Below, piece by piece: positions 135-64,000 of a stretch of 64,000 nucleotides of DNA (within the stretch, counting starts at the first letter, position 1; each line of letters opens with the position of its first letter). The stretch lies in assembly GCF_044324785.1 (NCBI RefSeq), contig NZ_CP172127.1. One strand, given 5' to 3'. The translations under genes were made by a program, and so were the position numbers. The notes beneath the pieces are model-generated. The model was not told the DNA's origin and searched no databases. It saw only the letters and a program-made list of their open reading frames with translations. The stretch comes from Escherichia coli. Its GTDB lineage: Bacteria > Pseudomonadota > Gammaproteobacteria > Enterobacterales > Enterobacteriaceae.

Positions 135-1244
135 GTGGCGACATTAACCCGGCTTTTTATTCATCCTGTTAAATCGATGCGCGGCATTGGTCTTACACAT
201 GCTCTGGCAGATGTCAGTGGTCTGGCCTTCGATCGCATCTTTATGATCACGGAACCTGACGGTACGTTTATTACCGCTCGCCAGTTTCCCCAGATGGTAC
301 GGTTTACTCCTTCACCTGTGCATGATGGCTTGCATCTCACCGCACCAGATGGCAGTAGCGCATATGTTCGTTTTGCTGATTTCGCCACACAAGACGCACC
401 AACCGAAGTTTGGGGCACACATTTTACCGCGCGAATTGCGCCAGGCGCGATCAACAAATGGCTAAGTGGATTTTTCTCCCGCGAAGTGCAATTACGCTGG
501 GTGGGGCCACAAATGACCCGGCGCGTGAAACGCCACAACACTGTACCTCTGTCATTTGCTGATGGCTATCCTTACCTTCTTGCTAACGAAGCCTCGTTAC
601 GTGATCTCCAACAACGTTGTCCAGCCAGTGTAAAAATGGAGCAATTCCGCCCCAATCTGGTGGTTTCCGGCGCGTCCGCCTGGGAAGAAGATAGCTGGAA
701 AGTGATTCGCATTGGTGATGTGGTATTTGATGTGGTTAAACCTTGTAGCCGCTGTATTTTCACCACCGTCAGCCCAGAAAAAGGGCAAAAACATCCGGCA
801 GGCGAACCATTAAAAACATTGCAATCTTTCCGCACTGCCCAGGATAACGGCGATGTCGATTTTGGTCAGAATTTAATTGCCCGTAATAGCGGCGTAATTC
901 GCGTTGGCGATGAGGTGGAAATTCTGGCAACGGCTCCGGCTAAAATTTACGGCGCAGCCGCCGCTGATGATACCGTCAACATCACGCAACAACCGGACGC
1001 AAATGTAGATATTGACTGGCAGGGACAGGCATTTCGTGGAAATAACCAGCAGGTGTTGCTGGAGCAATTAGAAAATCAGGGAATTCGTATCCCTTATTCT
1101 TGCCGCGCGGGCATTTGTGGAAGTTGCCGTGTTCAGCTTTTAGAAGGCGAAGTCACGCCGCTGAAAAAATCAGCAATGGGCGATGATGGCACCATTCTTT
1201 GCTGTAGCTGTGTACCGAAGACTGCGCTTAAGCTGACGCGTTAG
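135..1244 (+). CDS. ycbX: MOSC-domain 2Fe-2S protein YcbX (369 aa, GTG start)
   Basis: 369-aa ORF with C-terminal ferredoxin-like cysteine cluster ([11 protein letters not shown] ... CCSC); matches recalled E. coli YcbX length and N-terminus [17 protein letters not shown]. Confidence 0.9.
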
Positions 1245-1783
1245 ACTGCCTGTTCGAGGCTGAAGCTGTCCGCATTAACCTGCGGTTTCAGCCTGTCGTT
1301 CATGATTTTAATGGCGTCGCCCAACTGCATCGTGCGACCCGCAATAACAACGCAGGGTTGGGCCAGCAGGCATAGTGCGGCATTTTCGCCAGATTCAATG
1401 ACCAGCAAATTGACCTGCTCGTGAGTATCGCTCAACCAAACGCAGGCCGCATCGCCCGGCATGGGCATCCACATTTCACCATGAGATACAAAATGCCAGC
1501 TTTTCGGCATTTGCGGTTTGAGATAACGAATTGCTACCAGTGCATTAAGCACCAGTTCGGCTTTTTGTTCTTTAGATAAATTAAAATCGCGGCATTTTTC
1601 TTCAAATGAGAAATAGAGCGCTGCATCATCAACACAAAAAACGGAGGGATTAAAGGCATCTGGTGTGAGCATTTTACGAGCAAAACGCGAGCGAAATAAC
1701 ATACCATTGGCTAAATCGAGCATCATTCGATCGTGCTCTTCATCATAATACCAGCGCCAGTTATCGTCAGGTTTAATTCGCAT
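1241..1783 (-). CDS. zapC: cell division protein ZapC (180 aa)
   Basis: 180-aa ORF beginning [24 protein letters not shown]; 4-bp overlap with ycbX stop; conserved position between ycbX and pyrD. Confidence 0.9.
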
Positions 1784-1956
1784 GCGGATTCTCCCACCTA
1801 AATCATTCTGCGCAACATTGTCCTTTGCCGCTTCGTTTATTGCCCTAAATAAGAAAAGACTAAAATGTATAAATAAGCAACAGGTAAGGAATATAAAACA
1901 ACCAGGGCTGGAAATAAAGCCCCGGTTGTCTCATAACGTTAAAAAGGAGAAATTAA

Positions 1957-2967
1957 TCAGATATTGCTAACGATTTCTTTAATCAAAGGCGGTCCTTTGA
2001 AAATAAATCCCGAATAAATTTGCACCAGCGTTGCACCCGCAGCAATCTTTTCACGCGCAGCGATAACCGAGTCAATGCCGCCAACACCGATGATCGGTAA
2101 GCGACCGTTTAATTCCTGTGACAAGCGGCGAATAATTTCTGTGCTTTTTAACTGAAGCGGACGACCACTTAAGCCACCGGTTTGATCACAATTTTTCATT
2201 CCCTGAACCAGAGAACGATCGAGCGTGGTATTGGTTGCAATAACGCCATCAATATTATGGCGAACTAAACTATCGGCAACCTGGATCAATTCTTCTTCAG
2301 AAAGATCCGGCGCGATCTTCACTGCGATCGGCACATATTTATGGTGCATCGCTTGCAAATCATTTTGCTTATTTTTAATCGCGGTTAAGAGATCATCCAG
2401 CGCTTCGCCATATTGCAGTGTGCGTAGTCCTGGGGTATTCGGCGATGAAATATTGATGGCGATATATCCCGCATAAGCATAGATTTTTTCCATACAAATC
2501 AGATAGTCATCTTTACCCTGCTCCACCGGCGTATCTTTATTTTTGCCGATGTTAATACCCAGGACGCCATCATAATGGGCTTTTTTTACGTTCTCTACGA
2601 GGTTATCAACGCCAAGATTATTAAAGCCCATACGGTTGATCAAACCTTCGGCATCTACCAGACGAAAGAGACGCGGCTTGTCATTACCTGGCTGTGGACG
2701 TGGCGTGACGGTACCGATCTCGATCGATCCAAATCCCATCGCGCCTAACGCGTCAATGCACTCCCCGTCTTTATCAAGACCGGCTGCCAGACCAAGCGGA
2801 TTTTTAAACGTCAGGCCCATGCAGTTAACAGGTTTCGCAGGCACTTTCTGCCGCACCAGTGCTTCAAACGGCGTTCCGGTAATGCGGCGTAATTGCTGAA
2901 AAGTAAACTCATGAGCGCGCTCTGGATCGAGCTGGAAAAGGGCTTTACGAACGAAGGGGTAGTACAT
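1957..2967 (-). CDS. pyrD: dihydroorotate dehydrogenase (quinone), 336 aa
   Basis: Class 2 DHODH sequence; ORF-track start at 2994 trimmed to the ATG at 2967 ([11 protein letters not shown]) giving the canonical 336 aa. Confidence 0.95.
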
Positions 2968-3077
2968 GAACTCTCCTGGATTCCCGGTGTGCAAACCGGG
3001 GGCGTATTATGTGCGAGTTCGGACCAAAAGGGAATTGACCTGTGGCAAAAAAAGCGCAAACGTTTTCCGAACCTGTT

Positions 3078-3788
3078 TCAGAGCAGATTTTGCTCCTTCT
3101 TTGCACTCAACCCGCCGTAATCATTTATCGTCCGCCAGGAGACATGACACGGTGCTATTGCCTGACACCAGCTTGTCTGACGCTGGCTTTTAGGTGGCAC
3201 AACTCCCGCATTACTTAACGCTTTACCATTTACGCTCACCTGAATCAGGTTAATGTAGTAAGGCGTTGGGTTAGTGAGTTGTACACCCTGCGAATTCCGT
3301 GTCCAGCGTAATTGTTGATAAGCTTCCAGCGGGTCGCCCGGCAAACCTTCGGGTCGCCAGAACAGTTTAAATACCGAGCGCATCGCCACTTTTACGCTCT
3401 GATTTTCAACTTTGCCGGATGGTACGCTGGCAATGCTTAACTCAAATAGCGTTTCGCGATCCACAGGCAAAATGCCGCTTTCCGTTCTCAGCAAGCGCAA
3501 CGTGCCTGTAGTACCGGGCTTCAGGAGAACAAGTGGTGGAGCGACCAGTAGTGGTGCTGACCCTGTCGATGCTTCGCCCCCGGCCCAACGCGTTGGGCGA
3601 TTGATTTTACTGTTAATAAGCCAGGATTCCTGACTGGTATTAGTCAGTGAAATAGATATCGATTCTCTGTCTGCCGGGAAGATAAATCGCGTTCCGCCAA
3701 CCACCACTCCTGCCTGCAATTTCCCCGCCACCAGCAGCGATAAAACGGCAAAAATCGCGAGCGTCAATCTGTTCCACGTATTAGTCAT
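3078..3788 (-). CDS. ycbF: periplasmic fimbrial chaperone (PapD-like), YcbF
   Basis: Signal peptide followed by chaperone-like sequence; last gene of the ycb fimbrial cluster; start trimmed to MTNTWNR at 3788. Confidence 0.85.
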   Translation of the reverse strand: MTNTWNRLTLAIFAVLSLLVAGKLQAGVVVGGTRFIFPADRESISISLTNTSQESWLINSKINRPTRWAGGEASTGSAPLLVAPPLVLLKPGTTGTLRLLRTESGILPVDRETLFELSIASVPSGKVENQSVKVAMRSVFKLFWRPEGLPGDPLEAYQQLRWTRNSQGVQLTNPTPYYINLIQVSVNGKALSNAGVVPPKSQRQTSWCQAIAPCHVSWRTINDYGGLSAKKEQNLL

Positions 3789-10798: not shown

Positions 10799-11750
10799 GA
10801 TCATTAAACTGGCGCTGGCGGGCTTACTTAGCGTCTCTACACTTGCTGTTGCCGCGGAGTCTTCGCCAGAGGCGTTACGGATTGGCTATCAGAAAAGCAA
10901 CATCAGTTCGGTGCTGGCGAAAAATTACCAAATGCTGGAAAAACGCTATCCGCAAACAAAAATCTTCTGGGTGGAGTTCCCGGCTGGCCCGCAGATGCTG
11001 GAGGCACTGAACGTCGGTAGTATCGATCTGGGTAGTACGGGAGATATTCCGCCAATCTTTGCTCAGGCCGCCGGGGCTGATTTGCTGTATGTGGGTGTCG
11101 AGCCACCGAAGCCAAAAGCCGAAGTGATTCTGGTGGCAGAAAATAGTCCGATCAAAACCGTAGCCGATCTTAAAGGTCACAAAGTTGCCTTTCAGAAAGG
11201 TTCCAGTTCACACAACCTTTTACTGCGTGCACTGCGTCAGGCCGGACTTAAGTTTACCGATATACAACCCACTTACCTGACACCCGCTGATGCCCGCGCC
11301 GCGTTCCAGCAAGGTAACGTTGACGCCTGGGCTATCTGGGATCCCTACTACTCCGCTGCATTATTACAGGGCGGCGTGCGGGTGCTGAAAGACGGCACCG
11401 ATCTCAATCAAACCGGATCGTTTTATCTGGCTGCCCGTCCGTATGCAGAAAAAAACGGCGCATTTATTCAGGGTGTACTGGCAACCTTTAGTGAGGCCGA
11501 TGCGTTAACCCGCAGCCAGCGCGAGCAAAGCATCGCCTTATTGGCAAAAACGATGGGCTTACCGGCCCCGGTGATTGCCTCGTATCTGGATCATCGCCCT
11601 CCCACCACCATCAAACCGGTTAACGCCGAAGTTGCCGCCTTACAGCAGCAAACGGCAGATCTGTTTTATGAAAACCGTCTGGTGCCGAAAAAAGTCGATA
11701 TTCGCCAGCGTATCTGGCAGCCCACTCAACTGGAAGGAAAACAATTATGA
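10791..11750 (+). CDS. ssuA: aliphatic sulfonate ABC transporter periplasmic binding protein SsuA
   Basis: 319 aa from the ATG at 10791 ([21 protein letters not shown] signal peptide); 8-bp overlap with ssuE; ORF-track start over-extended. Confidence 0.9.
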
Positions 11751-12892
11751 GTCTGAATATGTTCTGGTTTTTACCGACCCATGGTGACGGGCATTATCTG
11801 GGAACGGAAGAAGGTTCACGCCCGGTTGATCACGGTTATCTGCAACAAATTGCGCAAGCGGCGGATCGTCTGGGCTATACCGGTGTGCTAATCCCAACGG
11901 GGCGATCGTGTGAAGATGCGTGGTTGGTGGCGGCGTCGATGATCCCGGTGACGCAGCGGCTGAAGTTTCTTGTCGCCCTGCGCCCCAGCGTAACCTCACC
12001 TACCGTTGCCGCCCGCCAGGCCGCCACGCTTGACCGTCTCTCTAATGGACGTGCGTTGTTTAACCTGGTCACAGGCAGCGATCCACAAGAACTGGCAGGC
12101 GACGGCGTGTTCCTTGATCATAGCGAGCGCTACGAAGCCTCGGCGGAATTTACCCAGGTCTGGCGGCGTTTATTGCTGGGCGAAACCGTCGATTTCAACG
12201 GTAAACATATTCATGTGCGGGGAGCCAAACTGCTCTTCCCGCCGATTCAACAGCCGTATCCTCCGCTTTACTTTGGCGGATCGTCAGACGTCGCCCAGGA
12301 GCTGGCGGCAGAACAAGTTGATCTCTACCTCACCTGGGGCGAACCGCCAGAACTGGTTAAAGAGAAAATCAAACAAGTGCGGGCGAAAGCTGCCGCGCAT
12401 GGACGCAAAATTCGTTTCGGTATTCGTCTGCATGTGATTGTTCGTGAAACCAACGACGAAGCGTGGCAGGCCGCCGAGCGGTTAATCTCGCATCTTGATG
12501 ATGAAACTATCGCCAAAGCACAGGCCGCATTCGCCCGGACGGATTCCGTAGGACAACAGCGGATGGCGGCGCTCCATAACGGCAAGCGCGACAATCTGGA
12601 GATCAGCCCCAATTTATGGGCGGGCGTTGGCTTAGTGCGCGGCGGTGCCGGGACGGCGCTAGTGGGCGATGGTCCGACGGTCGCCGCGCGGATCAACGAA
12701 TACGCTGCACTTGGCATCGACAGTTTTGTGCTTTCGGGCTACCCGCATCTGGAAGAAGCGTATCGGGTTGGCGAATTGCTGTTCCCGCATCTGGATGTCG
12801 CCATCCCGGAAATTCCCCAGCCGCAGCCGCTGAATCTGCAAGGCGAAGCGGTGGCAAATGATTTTATCCCCCGTAAAGTCGCGCAAAGCTAA
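11747..12892 (+). CDS. ssuD: FMNH2-dependent alkanesulfonate monooxygenase SsuD
   Basis: 381-aa luciferase-like monooxygenase; 4-bp overlap with ssuA. Confidence 0.95.
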
Positions 12893-57208: not shown

Positions 57209-57264
57209 AACATCATGTGCAGGCTGAATTCCGACCTGCCACCCCTTCCTTTAGTAGTAAAAAG

Positions 57265-57300
57265 TAAATCAGCGTTGAGAACATGCTCGACGCTGATTTA
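57265..57300. terminator. hairpin between convergent pflA and the bcsC-like gene
   Basis: Inverted repeat TAAATCAGCG ... CGCTGATTTA around a 16-nt loop; an A-run on the plus-strand 5' side gives a T-run on the minus strand, so it most plausibly terminates the bcsC-like transcript. Confidence 0.4.
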
Positions 57301-57342
57301 CTGGATTTAATTTCCGAGTTTTAACCTTCTGATTCTACCTCA

Positions 57343-60300
57343 TTACCAGTCGGCGTAAGGTATCAGCGGCTGCGGCGGTAAATCCATGTCGCCCTGCCAT
57401 CCGGCGGCGGAATACCGCACGTAGAGCAGGAAATGGCTTGGCGCATAATCTTTCGCCTGCTGGATATCAATCGCCGTGCCGACAAACCAGTTGGACGTGA
57501 CGCGACGCTCAAGTAACGCCCGCGCCGTGTAGCCAAAGCCCTGACTGCTGCCGCCGTCGTTGGTCTGACTGGCGGCATCCTCTTTCCAGTCCGTCGGGAT
57601 CAGGTTCATCAGCGGATAACGCGGCATGGTTTTGGTGCGCGAATGCGACCACGAGCCAGACGCACCCAGCTCCCACGACCAGTTTTCCGTCCGCTCCCGC
57701 CACATCACCGGTATGGCAAACGACAGGTATTCCTGCGGGCTGTAGTAACCGCCCTGACCAAGTGAGTAGCCACTCAGGTCTTTGTCGTAATGCCAGATCA
57801 TATTGTTAAGACCAATGGTCACACGGCGATTATTCTGGTTGATGATCTTATAGTAATAGCCCGTCATCCAGCGCACGCGCCAGTTATCTTCGACATTTTT
57901 ACCGGTTAACTGGTCACCGCTAAGCGATGCCCAGACGCCGTTTGCTTCACCTTTATCGTAGCTCAGGCTTAGCCCCACGCCGTCGGCACGCACGCCGCCC
58001 CATTTTTTCCCGGTATTGCTCGGGGAGTCTTTTTGCCCGCCAAAGGCCAGCAAAGAACTGGAGATGGGCCGACGGTGGGCGTTAACGGTGTAACCCAGCG
58101 GCCCGATATCATCGCTGTAACTGATGCCGCCGACCACATCCACCACGTTGAAGCCCATCGGCGTGGTGCCGATATCCCAGCTCCAGACGTCATTTCGCCA
58201 GCCGACCGCCACGCTGGCACCGGAATCCGACTGGCTGCGGTTGCCGCTACAGTCCTGTAATGTACAGGTGCCCCAGTTGTCATCCCATTTGCCATCGGCA
58301 TTAGTGGAGAAACTGCCGACGTTCATATTGACGAAATCACTGCGAAAGAACATCCGCCCGTCAGAGTACGGCGCATCCACCTGCAACATGGTGGTGTGCG
58401 CTTTCAGATCGGAGTAACCACCGGTGCCGCTCGAACCCCAGTAATCGTGCTCGAGGGTGACGTTAAGATCCTGCTGGCGATAGAGGTCCGCTGCATCGCT
58501 GCGCACGCCGCGTTTCAGCCAGTCATCTTTCTCGTCGTTACGGGTCAGCCGGGTAAAGGTGTCGTTATCCTGCGGACGCGTCGTGGTCACACCGGATGCG
58601 ACCATCGCGTCTTTGTAGGTTTCCAGCGCCTGCGTTGGATCGCCCGCCTGCGCTTCAAACTTCGCACCGTCGCGCAGCACCATCGCGCTTTCCATCGACG
58701 GTGGCTGAGATTTTGCCTGCGGGATCAACTTATTAAACGTCTGCTGCGCCGCTGCGGTATCGCCAAGCTGCGCCTGCGCCAGCGCCACGCGCCGCTGAGT
58801 GTTCAGAGAGGCGTTATCAGTGGCGGGCAGTTTCGCCAGCTGGCTACGTGCCGCCGCTTTGTCACCGGCAGCAATATCCACTTCCGTCAGACCAAGAATG
58901 GCATCGGCGTTAGTTGGCTCCCGCGTCAGGACATTCTGATATGCAGCGCGAGCGGCGGTGTAATCACGTCGTTGTTGCGCCCAGTCAGCCAGCGTGAGGT
59001 CAATACGCGAGGAAGGCGGTTGCTGGCGCAGCATCGCTTCCGCTTCTGCCTCTTTGCCGCTTTCTCGCAGGCGATTAGCGGTTTCCAACACCTGATCGCT
59101 TTGCAGTCGATTAACCAGCTCCTGAATATTGCTGCTCCACTGCGCGCGCGGCAGGCTGTTGATATGCGCCAGCGCCGCTCTGTCCTGGTCATGACCAGAG
59201 AGATACAGCCCGTAAGCGTAAACCTGCTCCGGGTCGTTCGGCTTCTGCTGCGCCAGATTGCGCATTAACGTATCGGCCTGGCTGCGTTGTCCGGCCTGCC
59301 AGAGATCCTGTGAAAGTCGGTAAGTAATCCATACACTGCCGGGGTCCAGCGCCAGTCGCTGGCGCTGAAGTGCTGCTGCCTGCGCCCATTTGCCCTGTTT
59401 TTCCAGCGCTTCGGCCTGCTGTGACAAACGGTCATTTTGCAGGCTGCGTTCGATATCATCAATGCTACGCCGCTGACTGGCAGAGAGCGAGGCGATAAAC
59501 GCTTCAGCCTTTTCTGGCGATTGCTGGCGGTATATATTCGCCAGCCCGCGCACGGCGTTAGTGTTGCCGCTGTCCATACGCAAGGTCTGCTGATAATAAC
59601 GTTCGGCGGCGGGATAATCTTTTCGCGCCATCGCCACATCGCCCAGCCCCAGCACTGCATAGCTGTCGGTGTTATCGACATTACGCGCCTGCTGGAACAG
59701 GCGTTCTGCCCGGTCAGGATTATTGGCTTTCAGCGCAGCATCGCCCTGCTGGATCGCCAGCCAGTAGCGGTTTACTTTCAGGAGACTGTTCCATTTGTCG
59801 TTGTTGCTGCTGTGCGGATCCAGGGCGAGGGCTTTTTCCAGATTCGCCACCGCATTGGCGCGATCGCCTTTCTGAGAATACGCCTGGCCCAGCGCTCCAA
59901 ATATGGCACCAGAGTCAGGATTATCAATATTAAGTATTTTCAACTGACGAATCGCTTCGTTGCGACGGGAGGCAATTTGCGTCATTGCCCCCCAGTATTC
60001 CAGCGCCATTTCGATATCTGGCGGTGCACCGTTAAATAGCTTGTCGTAACTGTCGATAGCCTCTTTATGTCGCCCGGAGATAGCTTGTAAGCGTGCCATT
60101 TGCAGTGCCTGACGCCCCTCAGGCGAAGAAAGTCGCATGGCCGTGCGCGATGCTTTATATATTTTTGAATCAGGAGCGAGCAGGGAAAGTCTGGCAAGTT
60201 GTTTTTGCGCGCCTTCAATATCTCCCTTACGCAGCAGATAGCGAAAACGCGCCGCAACGACATCTGGATTATCAGGTTCCGCCAATTCAAGACGATAAAG

Positions 60301-60450
60301 CGACTGTTCGACCAGATCTTCACGATGAATGTCTTCGCCTAACCGAATCTGCGCCATTAACAGCTTGTGTGCAGTTGGTGTGGCTTTCGCCATCGACATT
60401 ACCGCCAAACCAAGGGATATTGTGAGTAAATTTAGGGTGAATTTGTACAT
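57343..60450 (-). CDS. bcsC: BcsC-like outer membrane polysaccharide export protein (TPR repeats plus C-terminal beta-barrel), 1035 aa
   Basis: Signal peptide; long TPR-rich N-terminal region (repeated A/L/Q/R-rich about 34-aa units); aromatic-rich C-terminal beta-barrel ending PLIPYADW; directly downstream of a BcsB-like gene. Call based on architecture and recalled similarity, not a database search. Confidence 0.75.
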   Translation of the reverse strand: MYKFTLNLLTISLGLAVMSMAKATPTAHKLLMAQIRLGEDIHREDLVEQSLYRLELAEPDNPDVVAARFRYLLRKGDIEGAQKQLARLSLLAPDSKIYKASRTAMRLSSPEGRQALQMARLQAISGRHKEAIDSYDKLFNGAPPDIEMALEYWGAMTQIASRRNEAIRQLKILNIDNPDSGAIFGALGQAYSQKGDRANAVANLEKALALDPHSSNNDKWNSLLKVNRYWLAIQQGDAALKANNPDRAERLFQQARNVDNTDSYAVLGLGDVAMARKDYPAAERYYQQTLRMDSGNTNAVRGLANIYRQQSPEKAEAFIASLSASQRRSIDDIERSLQNDRLSQQAEALEKQGKWAQAAALQRQRLALDPGSVWITYRLSQDLWQAGQRSQADTLMRNLAQQKPNDPEQVYAYGLYLSGHDQDRAALAHINSLPRAQWSSNIQELVNRLQSDQVLETANRLRESGKEAEAEAMLRQQPPSSRIDLTLADWAQQRRDYTAARAAYQNVLTREPTNADAILGLTEVDIAAGDKAAARSQLAKLPATDNASLNTQRRVALAQAQLGDTAAAQQTFNKLIPQAKSQPPSMESAMVLRDGAKFEAQAGDPTQALETYKDAMVASGVTTTRPQDNDTFTRLTRNDEKDDWLKRGVRSDAADLYRQQDLNVTLEHDYWGSSGTGGYSDLKAHTTMLQVDAPYSDGRMFFRSDFVNMNVGSFSTNADGKWDDNWGTCTLQDCSGNRSQSDSGASVAVGWRNDVWSWDIGTTPMGFNVVDVVGGISYSDDIGPLGYTVNAHRRPISSSLLAFGGQKDSPSNTGKKWGGVRADGVGLSLSYDKGEANGVWASLSGDQLTGKNVEDNWRVRWMTGYYYKIINQNNRRVTIGLNNMIWHYDKDLSGYSLGQGGYYSPQEYLSFAIPVMWRERTENWSWELGASGSWSHSRTKTMPRYPLMNLIPTDWKEDAASQTNDGGSSQGFGYTARALLERRVTSNWFVGTAIDIQQAKDYAPSHFLLYVRYSAAGWQGDMDLPPQPLIPYADW

Positions 60451-60562: not shown

Positions 60563-61166
60563 TTACTGTTGATGAGGGTTCAGACGACGGCGACTAATGT
60601 TACGTAACAGACTCCATACTACCCACGCCAATAGCACCACACTGAGAGTTGCCAGCACTGCCAGTAGAATGGGATGTCTGGCTAACACATATTGCACTCG
60701 TTCAATCCAGGGGAGATGCCCAACGTAATAAGTATCTCCAACTCGTAAACTATTGATGCCAGATTCACGAATAACCGCGACTGAACCAAAAATATTGCCG
60801 CGTTTTGTACTATTAATTAACGCATTGTTGAGTAGCGTATCTCCGCGTGATCCCTCGGACATTAAAGCAATTACGCTGCGTTGGGTATGATATGGAGACT
60901 GAAAACCAACTATCGCCGCCATTGGCAATGGAGAATTTATAGTTGTTTGTATTTCAGGTTTTTGATCGTCGTTATCTGTCATAATTTTGGCGTAATCAGA
61001 GTGTCGTATTGGGCTTTTTACCCAACTTGTTGTTGCCTCAATGAGCAGATTAATTTGCTGATTGTCTGCAAATTCTTGCGGAAGTCTTCCTATTAACAGG
61101 ATATCTGAATCCTTGCCCTGGACAGAACCTATATCATCAGTAATTGTCAGATTAATTGCCGGAGAT
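60563..61166 (-). pseudogene. bcsB: 3' portion of BcsB-like gene (cellulose synthase periplasmic subunit) separated from its 5' portion by IS2
   Basis: Reading frame is open from the IS2 boundary (61166) through the ORF-track ORF 60563..60982 and ends in a C-terminal TM anchor (HPILLAVLATLSVVLLAWVVWSLL); frame is continuous with the 5' part once IS2 plus one TSD copy are removed. Confidence 0.7.
61162..61166. repeat. IS2 target-site duplication GAGAT (copy 1)
   Basis: GAGAT immediately flanks both IS2 termini. Confidence 0.9.
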
Positions 61167-61177
61167 TGGATTTGCCC

Positions 61178-62083
61178 CTATATTTCCAGACACCTGTTAT
61201 CACTTAACCCATTACTGGCCTGCTGCCGCAGATATTCCCGTGGCGAGCGATAACCCAGTGCACTATGCGGATGCCATTCGTTATAATGCTCGAACGCCTC
61301 TGCAAGGTTCTTTGCTGCCGTTAACCCGTCTGGTTTAGGCATGATACTGATGTAGTCACGCTTTATCGTTTTCACGAAGCTCTCTGCTATGCCGTTACTC
61401 TCCGGACTCCGCACCGCCGTGTTCTTCGGTTCAAGCCCCAACATCCGGGCAAACTGCCGTGTTTCATTAGCCCGGTAGCATGAACCATTATCCGTCAGCC
61501 ACTCTACTGGAGACGCCGGAAGCTCGTTGCCGAAGCGGCGTTCCACCGCTCCCAGCATTACGTCCTGTACTGTTTCACTGTCGAAGCCGCCCGTAGTGAC
61601 TGCCCAGTGCAGTGCCTCACGGTCACAGCAGTCCAGCGCGAACGTGACTCGCAGTTTTTCTCCGTTATCACAGCGGAACTCGAACCCGTCAGAGCACCAT
61701 CGTTGATTGCTTTCTTTCACGGCCACTTTGCCAGTATGTGCCCGTTTCGATGGCGGTACAGCGGTTTTTCGCTCAAGCAACAGCGCATTCTGGCGCATGA
61801 TCCGGTAAACACGTTTGGCATTGATCGCAGGCATACCATCAAGTTCGGCCTGTCTGCGAAGCAGCGCCCATACCCGACGATAACCATACGTGGGCAGCTC
61901 TCCGATAACATGGTGTATACGGAGAAGCACATCCGTATCATCTGAGTGACGGCTGCGGCGACCATCTTTCCAGTCATCGGTTCGTCTGAGAATTACGTGC
62001 AACTGCGCACGCGACACCCGGAGACAACGGCTGACTAAGCTTACTCCCCATCCCCGGGCAATAAGGGCGCGTGCGCTATCCAC
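61178..62083 (-). CDS. insD: IS2 transposase OrfB (InsD), DDE integrase domain
   Basis: 301-aa ORF beginning [29 protein letters not shown], with rve-type catalytic region; overlaps insC in the -1 frame as expected for IS3-family frameshifting. Confidence 0.9.
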
Positions 62084-62406
62084 TTTTTTGCACGCCCGTA
62101 TTCAACGGCTTCTTTAAGGAGTTCATTTTCCATCGTTTTTTTGCCGAGCAGGCGCTGGAGTTCTTTAATCTGCTTCATGGCAGCAGCAAGTTCAGAGGCA
62201 GGAACGACCTGCTCTCCTGCGGCCACAGCAGTAAGACTTCCCTCCTGGTATTGCTTGCGCCAGAGAAATAACTGGCTGGCTGCCACACCGTGTTGCCGGG
62301 CAACAAGGGAGACCGTCATTCCCGGTTCAAAACTCTGCTGAACAATAGCGATCTTTTCCTGTGTAGTACGCCGTCTGCGTTTCTCCGGTCCTAAGACATC
62401 AATCAT
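62041..62406 (-). CDS. insC: IS2 OrfA (InsC), helix-turn-helix regulator
   Basis: 121 aa from the ATG at 62406 ([41 protein letters not shown]...); ORF-track start over-extended. Confidence 0.9.
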
Positions 62407-62497
62407 CTGCTCTCCAATGACTAGTCTAAAAACTAGTATTAAGACTATCACTTATTTAAGTGATATTGGTTGTCTGGAGATTCAGGGGGCCAGTCTA

Positions 62498-62502
62498 GAG
62501 AT
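62498..62502. repeat. IS2 target-site duplication GAGAT (copy 2)
   Basis: GAGAT immediately flanks both IS2 termini. Confidence 0.9.
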
Positions 62503-64000
62503 CCAGTTTGAGCACCAATCAGTCCAAGGGTATTTAATAATGTTTCAACTTGCGTTGTGCCAGGATTTTCAGGCATAACCACAACCGTTTCTGATAGATC
62601 GGCCATGCGGCTAAATGGAAAGCCTGAGCTGGCAAAAGCGCGTAAATCTGGCATTGCGATAAAGTGATGGTACTTTGAAAAATCGATAGTGGAATCATCT
62701 GCAATAACCGCATGATTTTTTAGCGACCGGGAAATAATACAGCTATCGGCATCAGAGCGCGGCATTGTATTAACGTACTCAAAATTAAATCGCAATTGAT
62801 TAAGCGCCCCTAACGTCAGCGCAGGAATGTTAATTTCATTATTACCATCCAACAATTCTTGCAATAACGGTAAACGTAACAATAACCTATCAGTAGCAGA
62901 TTGCGGACTCAGCCGGAAAGATTCAAGGTACTGGTTATTAAGGCTGACATCCATGCGTGAACCACCTATCGTTGGCGTGGTATAACGATAGTTAATCTTC
63001 ATCTCACCCCCACGATTACGCAATAGAAAGAGATCAGGTGGCAAATTAAATGAAACATTAATTGCCGCAGACTCCAGGGCACTTGCCTGTAACTGCCCTT
63101 CATAATTTTTAAGCTCTGCGAAAGTTACAGGACGATCAGTGCGTATCCAGTTTGGCGCATCATAAGGTTTACGCGGCAGTAACGGCTTCACGTCATTTAC
63201 GACCACGCTATCGCCGCGAAATAATATATTTCCCTGTGCAAGGCCTTTTGCCGCCTGTAATAAATCTTTATCATCGCGGCCCAAAAGTACCAGCAATTTG
63301 ACAAAGGGATTTTGTGGATGACTGATCATTTTAATAACAGGCGCATTCACCAACGGATGCTCGCGCAGAAAGTCTGGGCGTCTATTGTTCGTGGCAAAGA
63401 CTACTGCATTACTTTCCGGTAACTGGTTATAGAAAACCGGAAATCGGTGACCACGCCAGCCAGATTGCGAACCAAACCACGAAGCGACAATAGCTGATAC
63501 CTGCTGCAAACCAGTCCCAGGAGTACCGGCAAAAACCATCGGCAATGTATTAGGGCGGTTATCTCGCGGATCAAAGAACGGTACAGGAAGATATGAAAGA
63601 TCATTTTTCAAATTGAGTCTCTGAACTACCAGTTCAAGTTCACTGGTACGTCCAATATCAAGCCACAAATTGCCGCTGGTCGGGTTTTCGCAGGCGCTCT
63701 GGTAGTGACTAATTAATTCTAGGCGCAAGCGATTAAAATCCGAAAAATACAATGGGTTAAGAGTTATTTCCGCCAGCGTTTTCTTCCCCAGTTGTTCTTT
63801 GGTAATCGGCAATACCTCCATCAACTCGTCATTAAGATAGACCTTAAGCTGTGACTGGACCGGGATCAGCGACGGTGATGGAGTGTATTCAAGTTTTAGT
63901 TTCGCTTCTGACACTATTTCATCGCTACGCATACCAAACTCAATTTGCCCCTGTGGGTTAACTCCATTCAGGACTATGTTTCCTGGCGCTGGTGCGATTT
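62498..64000 (-). pseudogene. bcsB: 5' portion of BcsB-like gene interrupted by IS2 (runs off the window end)
   Basis: Open minus-strand frame from the window edge to the IS2 boundary; ORF-track protein 62448..63932 (494 aa) is BcsB-like, with its last 16 codons read from IS2 sequence before a stop. Confidence 0.7.

Follow-up and report, generated by a model that had tools for sequence, protein, structure and literature searches.

The core BcsC of Escherichia coli (P37650; structures 6TZK and 9B8A) consists of a Sec signal peptide, a solenoid of tetratricopeptide repeats (TPRs), and a 16-strand outer-membrane beta-barrel, the BCSC_C domain. There are 19 TPRs in total, the first four of which (TPR#1-4) span residues 21-179; of all the repeats, only TPR#1 is docked on BcsB in the E. 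coli complex, at CBD-1 of the terminal subunit (PMC11379886). In the Enterobacter protein, TPR4, TPR5, and TPR6 have been placed at residues 148-181, 182-214, and 215-249, followed by an unpaired helix, alpha14, at 251-265; protease-stable fragments of that protein comprise residues 24-272 and 295-695 (PMC5638805). Here, we describe a bcsC gene, designated bcsC3, from a stretch of 64,000 nucleotides (nt) of E. coli DNA (assembly GCF_044324785.1, contig NZ_CP172127.1), which is referred to below as the window. The product of bcsC3 has the same general layout as the core protein but is 122 amino acids (aa) shorter, 1035 aa as against the 1157 aa (3474 nt) of core bcsC in E. coli K-12 (b3530), and its TPR1-4 are only 66% identical to those of core BcsC. 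The reading that best accounts for the gene, to which we assign a probability of roughly 0.78, is that bcsC3 is the export subunit of a rare accessory cellulose island, that the loss of TPR5-7 is fixed in the gene of this island, and that its 3' part has been converted by the core bcsC of the host.

Accessory bcs loci have been described previously. In the 'type 3' cluster (Hosseinpourlamardi et al., bioRxiv 10.1101/2025.05.09.653004), a chromosomal bcsABC lies with homologues of YliE and YliF, and BcsA is without the N-terminal extension and is ~41% identical to BcsA1. In that work, BcsC clusters concordantly with BcsA, and the main text contains no instance of the terms TPR, recombination, or chimer-. 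The window region that carries bcsC3 is 100% identical across 4167 nt to E. coli N3, in which the complete order is pflA / bcsC, bcsB, bcsA, GGDEF, EAL-sensor / ycaM. A first-pass annotation of the window had taken the gene for the core E. coli bcsC carrying a lesion; it belongs instead to a separate island between pflA and ycaM and, unlike the core gene, has no adjacent bcsZ, bcsQ/R, or bcsEFG. The comparison with type 3 was made on N3, which is identical to the window across bcsC and 99.9% identical across the portion of bcsB that the window holds. As in type 3, chromosomal bcsABC is found in N3 next to genes for a YliE-like EAL phosphodiesterase and a YliF-like GGDEF cyclase. Furthermore, the 706-aa BcsA of the N3 island is without the ~150-aa N-terminal extension and has 365 identities over the 872-aa BcsA1 (41.9% globally, as against the ~41-42% of type 3), and both clusters are found in Escherichia only. 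The island BcsB of N3 shares 64.6% identity with BcsB1. On the criteria of gene order and level of identity, rather than of accessions, the island fits the type 3 cluster.

The island is rare. Besides N3, it is present in strain 06-00048 (96% identical) and in a seven-genome group typified by MS 21-1 (86%), and a partial copy is found in E. marmotae. Of 5426 complete E. coli genomes, nine contain the island-specific 5' segment of bcsC at 80% identity or more, and a second, core-type match is present in each of the nine. For N3, the core operon bcsA-B-Z-C was found directly, with an intact 1157-aa BcsC. In a DNA scan of 100,044 GTDB species representatives, the only match to an island-specific motif came from a genome labelled 'E. 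coli E69' (CP089930.1).

The bcsC3 open reading frame (ORF) starts with ATG and contains no internal stop, as seen in the ORF list of the window and in the translation. A GAGG sequence lies 6-9 nt 5' of the start codon, which is the same as the RefSeq start in N3, and the product is 100% identical to the annotated bcsC product of that strain (WP_116836667.1). Read from the translation, the N-terminus, MYKFTLNLLTISLGLAVMSMAKA followed by TP, is a candidate signal peptide; it precedes a long TPR array, in which several Pfam TPR families match residues 158-582. The BCSC_C family (PF05420) is matched over model positions 1-334 of 336 (E=1.2e-119, 399.9 bits against a cut-off of 23.5). In addition, PDB entry 6TZK, which holds the barrel and TPR19, aligns with residues 587-1035, and the two E. 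coli BcsC entries 9B8A and 6TZK match the remainder of the protein, including the C-terminus. Thus, the C-terminal barrel is complete, as it had appeared to be in the first-pass annotation. Fragments of bcsB lie directly upstream in the window, and the full arrangement downstream of bcsA-bcsB is seen in N3. The array has ~16 TPRs rather than the 19 of the enterobacterial core. In its barrel, TPR array, and gene order the product is a BcsC, and it departs from the type in repeat number.

Alignments with the K-12 core, of both protein and nucleotide sequence, place the whole of the difference in a single contiguous gap of 122 aa (366 nt), which corresponds to K-12 residues 177-298 (gene nt 529-894); there is no other indel. 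The size difference suspected earlier, as well as its position in the N-terminal TPR region, is therefore borne out. The numbering of the window and K-12 proteins is that of Enterobacter minus 1, as implied by a phmmer match to 5XW7, and on this scale TPR5, TPR6, the unpaired helix alpha14, and TPR7 are the units that are absent, so that by sequence TPR4 joins TPR8 directly. TPR7 is here the K-12 helix pair 268-297, assigned from the sequence and the repeat count of the Enterobacter paper rather than from a solved structure. Both edges of the gap share the same phase of the TPR motif, after helix B and before the N/A-P-x-D/N turn. An AlphaFold2 (AF2) model, built from an alignment of 22 close sequences, has 33 helices within residues 27-618, with a block-mean predicted local distance difference test (pLDDT) score mostly of 75-93. 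At the junction, this model predicts a helix at 160-176, a turn, and helices at 181-194 and 197-210, with block-mean pLDDT values of 81-91 over residues 161-210. The barrel of the AF2 model, which is of low confidence (pLDDT <50) owing to the small alignment, was discarded, and the barrel was judged from the Pfam and PDB matches instead.

The same 1035-aa length and gap position are found in colinear orthologues from N3, 06-00048, E69, and the seven genomes of the MS 21-1 group, and the junction is also identical in the partial E. marmotae copy. Consequently, 1035 aa is the fixed, normal form of the island's bcsC and not a lesion of one strain; colinear orthologues of equal size are just what the first-pass annotation had set as the refutation of its reading. 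The first-pass annotation had also proposed an in-frame, repeat-mediated deletion of TPRs. An in-frame loss of whole TPR units is borne out, and the kind of event was probably named correctly; the event is, however, old and fixed, and an examination of the K-12 sequence for direct repeats at the gap edges yielded 0 nt.

The second distinctive property of bcsC3 is that it is a mosaic of island-type 5' and core-type 3' sequence. Relative to K-12, 173 of the 555 aligned nt in the 5' segment are mismatched (31%), as against 100 of 2553 (3.9%) in the remainder, and the maximum chi-square breakpoint falls at K-12 nt 921/922. In all five pairs tested, the breakpoint lies at K-12 nt 916-922, with chi-square values of 149-500. 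The sequence thus remains island-type for 27 nt beyond the gap (nine codons, NPDSGAIFG) and switches to core at 'ALGQAYSQ'. Among island copies, identity over the first 528 nt is 85-99% (85-88% between island lineages, ~99% within the lineage of the window), compared with ~69-70% to any core bcsC. The core-type segment, in contrast, is 96.1% identical to the K-12 core and 96.9% identical to N3's own core. The proteins give the same picture: TPR1-4 of bcsC3 are 56-66% identical to each core BcsC compared (Escherichia, Citrobacter, a probable Salmonella protein of 1180 aa, Enterobacter, and Lelliottia), while K-12 shares 70-97% identity with them; over the last 850 residues, identity to K-12 is 98.6%, and the distances to the other genera follow the profile of K-12. 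Beyond the stop codon there is no likeness to the core, and the 3' flank is unrelated to that of core bcsC. Thus, unlike the concordant clustering of BcsC and BcsA described for type 3, 83% of bcsC3 is core-type and only its first 185 codons are island-like.

The core-type part follows the host. Over K-12 nt 922-1366, the copy in the window shares 98.2% identity with K-12 and 89% with the E. marmotae core, whereas for the E. marmotae island copy the figures are 99.8% with the E. marmotae core and 89% with E. coli. (The E. marmotae contig holds only the first 445 nt of the core-type part, and the E. marmotae core sequence was taken from two assemblies other than the island-bearing one.) Within N3, the island and core genes are 96.9% identical over 2553 nt, with identical runs of 272-321 nt and mismatches clustered at nt 1194-1458, 2971-3015, and 3213-3426. 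A sharp breakpoint, likeness that follows the host, and patchy identical tracts are the marks of gene conversion, and all are seen in bcsC3; the pattern is one of repeated, patchy conversion of the island 3' part by the core bcsC of the host. The tracts halt at nt 922, presumably because the identity upstream of this point (~70%) is too low for homologous recombination. A further argument for conversion, from near-identical 5' and divergent 3' parts among the window, 06-00048, and E69, was dropped: the E69 gene is indeed 99.6% identical to the window in its 5' part and 93.5% in its 3' part, but the remaining island of N3 and 06-00048 is also only 94-95% identical, which rules the argument out. 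As a separate observation, the two N3 genes (NZ_CP031609.1; island bcsC at 3,994,112-3,997,219 on the minus strand and core bcsC at 1,203,611-1,207,084 on the plus strand) form inverted repeats of ~2.55 kb and 96.9% identity, 2.79 Mb apart, between which a large inversion or other chromosomal rearrangement might take place.

Taken together, these results have led to the following model for the origin of bcsC3. TPR5-7 would have been lost once in the island lineage, by an in-frame deletion that took place before the island copies diverged. TPR4 would thereby have come to adjoin a TPR8-like repeat, and only later would a core-type 3' part have been acquired in register; this 3' part would then have been overwritten repeatedly by the resident core bcsC of each Escherichia host. 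Since island-type sequence flanks the gap at either edge, the loss of the repeats is most likely to have been single and old rather than a by-product of the exchange with the core. Furthermore, the close enterobacterial BcsC proteins all have TPR5-7, and it is therefore most likely that the island lineage lost them by in-frame deletion. The island-type residues that follow the gap, NPDSGAIFG, resemble core residues 299-307 (NPKDSEALG) much more closely than core residues 177-185 (APGNTGLQN).

In this model, bcsC3 is likely to provide the export channel for the accessory BcsA and BcsB, with a shorter periplasmic arm. Its product would dock on the accessory BcsB through TPR#1, and glucan would pass along its core-like solenoid and porin. 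Five of the seven BcsB-contact residues are kept (Gln34, Leu37, Gln49, Arg53, and Leu56), and two TPR#1 contacts are altered (Gln30 to Leu and Ile57 to Ala). On the other side of the interface, the island BcsB of N3 keeps V108, L162, S165, D166, L207, and K210 and carries the changes F163Y, I164F, and V209L; elsewhere in the analysis the tally for BcsB is given as 5/9 residues unchanged. It is speculation that V209L in BcsB and I57A in BcsC compensate each other in size.

A useful comparison is offered by the type 2 cluster, which is carried on P1-like (p0111) phage-plasmids such as pLH13-b-B. Like the island, it contains EAL, GGDEF, bcsA, bcsB, and bcsC, in that order; its BcsA is 73% identical to that of the island (and 43.9% to BcsA1), and its bcsC is also of core origin. 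Unlike that of the island, however, the type 2 bcsC is core-type throughout and encodes all 1157 aa. A 126-nt remnant of bcsZ lies ahead of it, an arrangement that indicates complete capture rather than a partial graft. The type 2 BcsB is only 60% identical to the BcsB of the island. In pLH13-b-B itself (NZ_CP100527.1, 36-54 kb), a group II intron, an IS200/IS605 tnpA, and the bcsZ remnant separate EAL-GGDEF-bcsA-bcsB from the core-type bcsC downstream, which is 95-100% identical to K-12; from this arrangement, the plasmid evidently captured a chromosomal bcsZ'-bcsC.

Several points weigh against the preferred account. First, the window ends inside bcsB, and its bcsA and cyclic di-GMP genes are taken from N3. 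Second, the argument that the gap preceded the exchange rests on nine codons only. Third, an unconverted island bcsC was not found in a library of 1.84 billion proteins or among the GTDB species representatives. A HMMER search of the 1.84 billion representatives gave only the MS 21-1-type protein and distant colinear matches of ~30% that could not be placed in register, an N-terminal word-index search gave partial proteins only, and the DNA scan of the GTDB species representatives gave one further E. coli copy only. Fourth, the 3' part of the MS 21-1-type gene is ~88% identical to the E. coli and E. marmotae cores alike. The pflA beside this island (11469-12209 of locus L003) is 92.7% identical to N3 pflA, and the ycaM side is 96.9% identical, which suggests that the MS 21-1-type island was imported recently, flanks included, from another Escherichia lineage. 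Finally, the type 2 plasmid cluster pairs a wholly core-type BcsC with a divergent BcsB, which weakens the case for a strict specificity of TPR1-4 for its partner.

The strongest of the alternatives, which we consider possible though distinctly less probable than the model above, is a one-step unequal crossover. Here, an island bcsC broken near TPR5 helix A would have been joined to core TPR8 helix A, which would have deleted three TPRs and grafted the 3' part in the same event. In its favour, the gap and the switch point are separated by only 27 nt. In addition, TPR helix-A motifs (GCGCTGG, Ala-Leu-Gly) recur as end-points of deletions in core bcsC, one such deletion (P0164) begins at exactly residue 308, and no full-length island-type bcsC was seen in the library and GTDB searches. 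Against this, the nine codons that follow the gap resemble the start of TPR8 far better than the start of TPR5, as the model of an earlier deletion would have it, although so short a stretch is not decisive.

The idea with which the first-pass annotation began, that an ordinary E. coli bcsC has suffered a recent, strain-specific, repeat-mediated deletion or is a decaying remnant, now has very little to recommend it. The core gene is certainly prone to such events: at least 13 in-frame deletions of 91-209 aa have been found in the TPR region of core bcsC, most with direct repeats of 4-9 nt. However, bcsC3 lies at a separate locus with its own bcsA and bcsB, differs from the core at 31% of sites over its 5' 555 nt, has no direct repeats at its gap edges, and has its 1035-aa form in common with several diverged lineages, one of which, N3, also has an intact core bcsC. 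Nor is it a remnant. The ORF is intact, with no frameshift, premature stop, or truncation. Among island lineages, moreover, the ratio of nonsynonymous to synonymous substitution rates (dN/dS) lies at 0.14-0.30 for the 5' segment and at 0.04-0.06 for the 3' segment, values that indicate purifying selection and no relaxation of it.

The core deletion alleles of E. coli and Salmonella are nevertheless of interest in themselves. Like bcsC3, they have lost 91-209 aa within the TPR array and have kept the signal peptide and barrel; unlike bcsC3, they have a core-type N-terminus, have lost different segments, mostly have edge repeats of 4-9 nt, and are scattered rather than fixed. The TPR region of core bcsC is thus a hot spot for in-frame deletion, with at least 13 E. 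coli alleles, all within K-12 residues 214-728; GGCGCTGGC is an example of a direct repeat at the deletion edges. A 1027-aa core allele (deletion of 548-677) is present on at least 1000 contigs, and the segment that it lacks is found in 5314 of the 5426 complete genomes, compared with 5381 of 5426 for the 5' end of the gene (~67 fewer). E. coli BcsC matches of 997-1066 aa were considered as native accessory proteins and were rejected. They are core-type proteins with other TPR deletions and are therefore silent on the native length of the island BcsC. In one further E. coli protein, P0160 (1012 aa), the first ~235 residues of BcsA are fused in frame to BcsC from about residue 370, and hence a deletion must have spanned bcsA, bcsB, bcsZ, and the 5' part of bcsC.

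It is equally hard to credit that bcsC3 is an old paralogue that has undergone no recombination, with a fast-evolving 5' end and a constrained 3' end. The barrel and solenoid are well conserved, at 76-86% aa identity among genera. Yet the contrast extends to synonymous sites, where the divergence from K-12 (dS) is 1.3 for the 5' segment but 0.17 for the 3' segment, a difference of about eight-fold that selection-driven rates cannot explain. Furthermore, the 3' part matches the core of the current host, E. coli or E. marmotae, and not the other island copies, and identical tracts of ~320 nt alternate with clusters of mismatches.

In draft assemblies, contigs stop within the island bcsC, 300-470 nt past the junction (e.g., in E. 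marmotae GCA_024722075.1), and these breaks yield many entries of 200-333 aa annotated 'tetratricopeptide repeat protein, partial'. Breaks at this position would be expected if those genomes hold the 3' part as a near-exact repeat; they are a practical sign of the repeat and a reason why the island is easily missed or mis-annotated. That short-read assemblies do break at the bcsC repeat might also suggest that core reads have been collapsed onto the island gene to give a false chimera, but this can be dismissed with near certainty, as nine complete genomes, E69, and the window all share this in-frame structure, each with its own mismatches to the core, and the flank 3' of the stop codon is island and pflA sequence.

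In the strain that gave the window, the island itself has been damaged upstream of bcsC3 (Table 1). An IS2-like insertion sequence (IS) of the IS3 family, flanked by a 5-bp target duplication, GAGAT, at 61162-61166 and 62498-62502, splits the accessory bcsB (bcsB3) at about codon 566 of 766; the 5' part is 99.9% identical to N3 bcsB. The element is at this site in none of the nine island-bearing complete E. coli genomes. The C-terminal ~200 residues of BcsB include the membrane anchor needed for BcsA activity. As these residues are lost by the split, the accessory operon, and with it the synthase, is probably inactive in this strain, in which case bcsC3 is an intact gene in a disabled operon. 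It may also be silenced by polarity of the IS; a promoter scan did no better than on shuffled sequence and is uninformative on expression downstream of the element. On its other side, bcsC3 is convergent with pflA, and the hairpin between the two genes is likely to be a bidirectional terminator. A diverged homologous hairpin occupies the same place in MS 21-1.

Table 1. Features of the accessory bcs locus in the window, together with the deletion alleles of core bcsC used for comparison.
Feature	Location	Strand	Basis
bcsC of the accessory (type-3-like) bcs island, 'bcsC3'	57343..60450	-	ORF list, translation, Pfam, N3 match
Island-type 5' segment (gene nt 1-555, codons 1-185): candidate signal peptide, TPR1-TPR4, NPDSGAIFG	59896..60450	-	divergence from core, breakpoint
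Site at which 122 aa of core BcsC are absent (codons 176/177)	59922..59923	-	alignments
Core-type 3' segment (gene nt 556-3108): TPR8-19 and beta-barrel	57343..59895	-	identity to core bcsC
BCSC_C outer-membrane beta-barrel domain (residues 680-1014)	57409..58413	-	PF05420, PDB matches
Hairpin with 17-bp stem between convergent pflA and bcsC3	57263..57302	.	terminator scan
3' fragment of accessory bcsB (bcsB3)	60563..61166	-	Pfam BcsB C-terminal match; colinear with N3 bcsB up to the IS
IS2-like element, IS3 family, 1331 bp	61167..62497	-	HTH_Tnp_1 and rve ORFs; absent from the N3 site
5' part of bcsB3, running off the window end, start codon outside	62498..64000	-	Pfam BcsB 32-502 of 606
E. 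coli core deletion alleles P0085, P0089, P0106, P0119, P0153, P0159, P0163, P0105, P0161, P0164, P0165, P0176, P0186	mapped on L002:3701-7174		
Salmonella core deletion alleles P0151, P0169, P0179, P0199	mapped on L002:3701-7174		

Given all of these results, the short BcsC is to be regarded as the normal form in a second, rare cellulose operon and not as damage to the main one. The island is an accessory cluster of a published kind, and its mosaic maintained by conversion is a modestly new evolutionary observation rather than a new kind of system. Accessory and core operons exchange 2.5 kb within one genome, and a BcsC tree would accordingly mislead phylogenies of the Bcs proteins; the same 2.5-kb near-repeat matters for short-read assembly, in which contigs break there. 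In addition, it has been considered that bcsC3 is a selected modular graft, in which an island-specific, BcsB-docking TPR1-4 that co-varies with the accessory BcsB is combined, by way of a shortened arm, with a solenoid and porin that conversion keeps matched to the core BcsC of the host. We regard this as doubtful; were it true, a mobile synthase would always plug into an outer-membrane exit adapted to its host, and the presence of core-type BcsC in both accessory types, by partial graft in one and by capture of the whole gene in the other, would reflect selection and not chance. Finally, the join of TPR4 to TPR8, together with the TPR-deletion alleles of the core gene, constitutes a natural experiment on the length of periplasmic arm that is needed for the export of cellulose.

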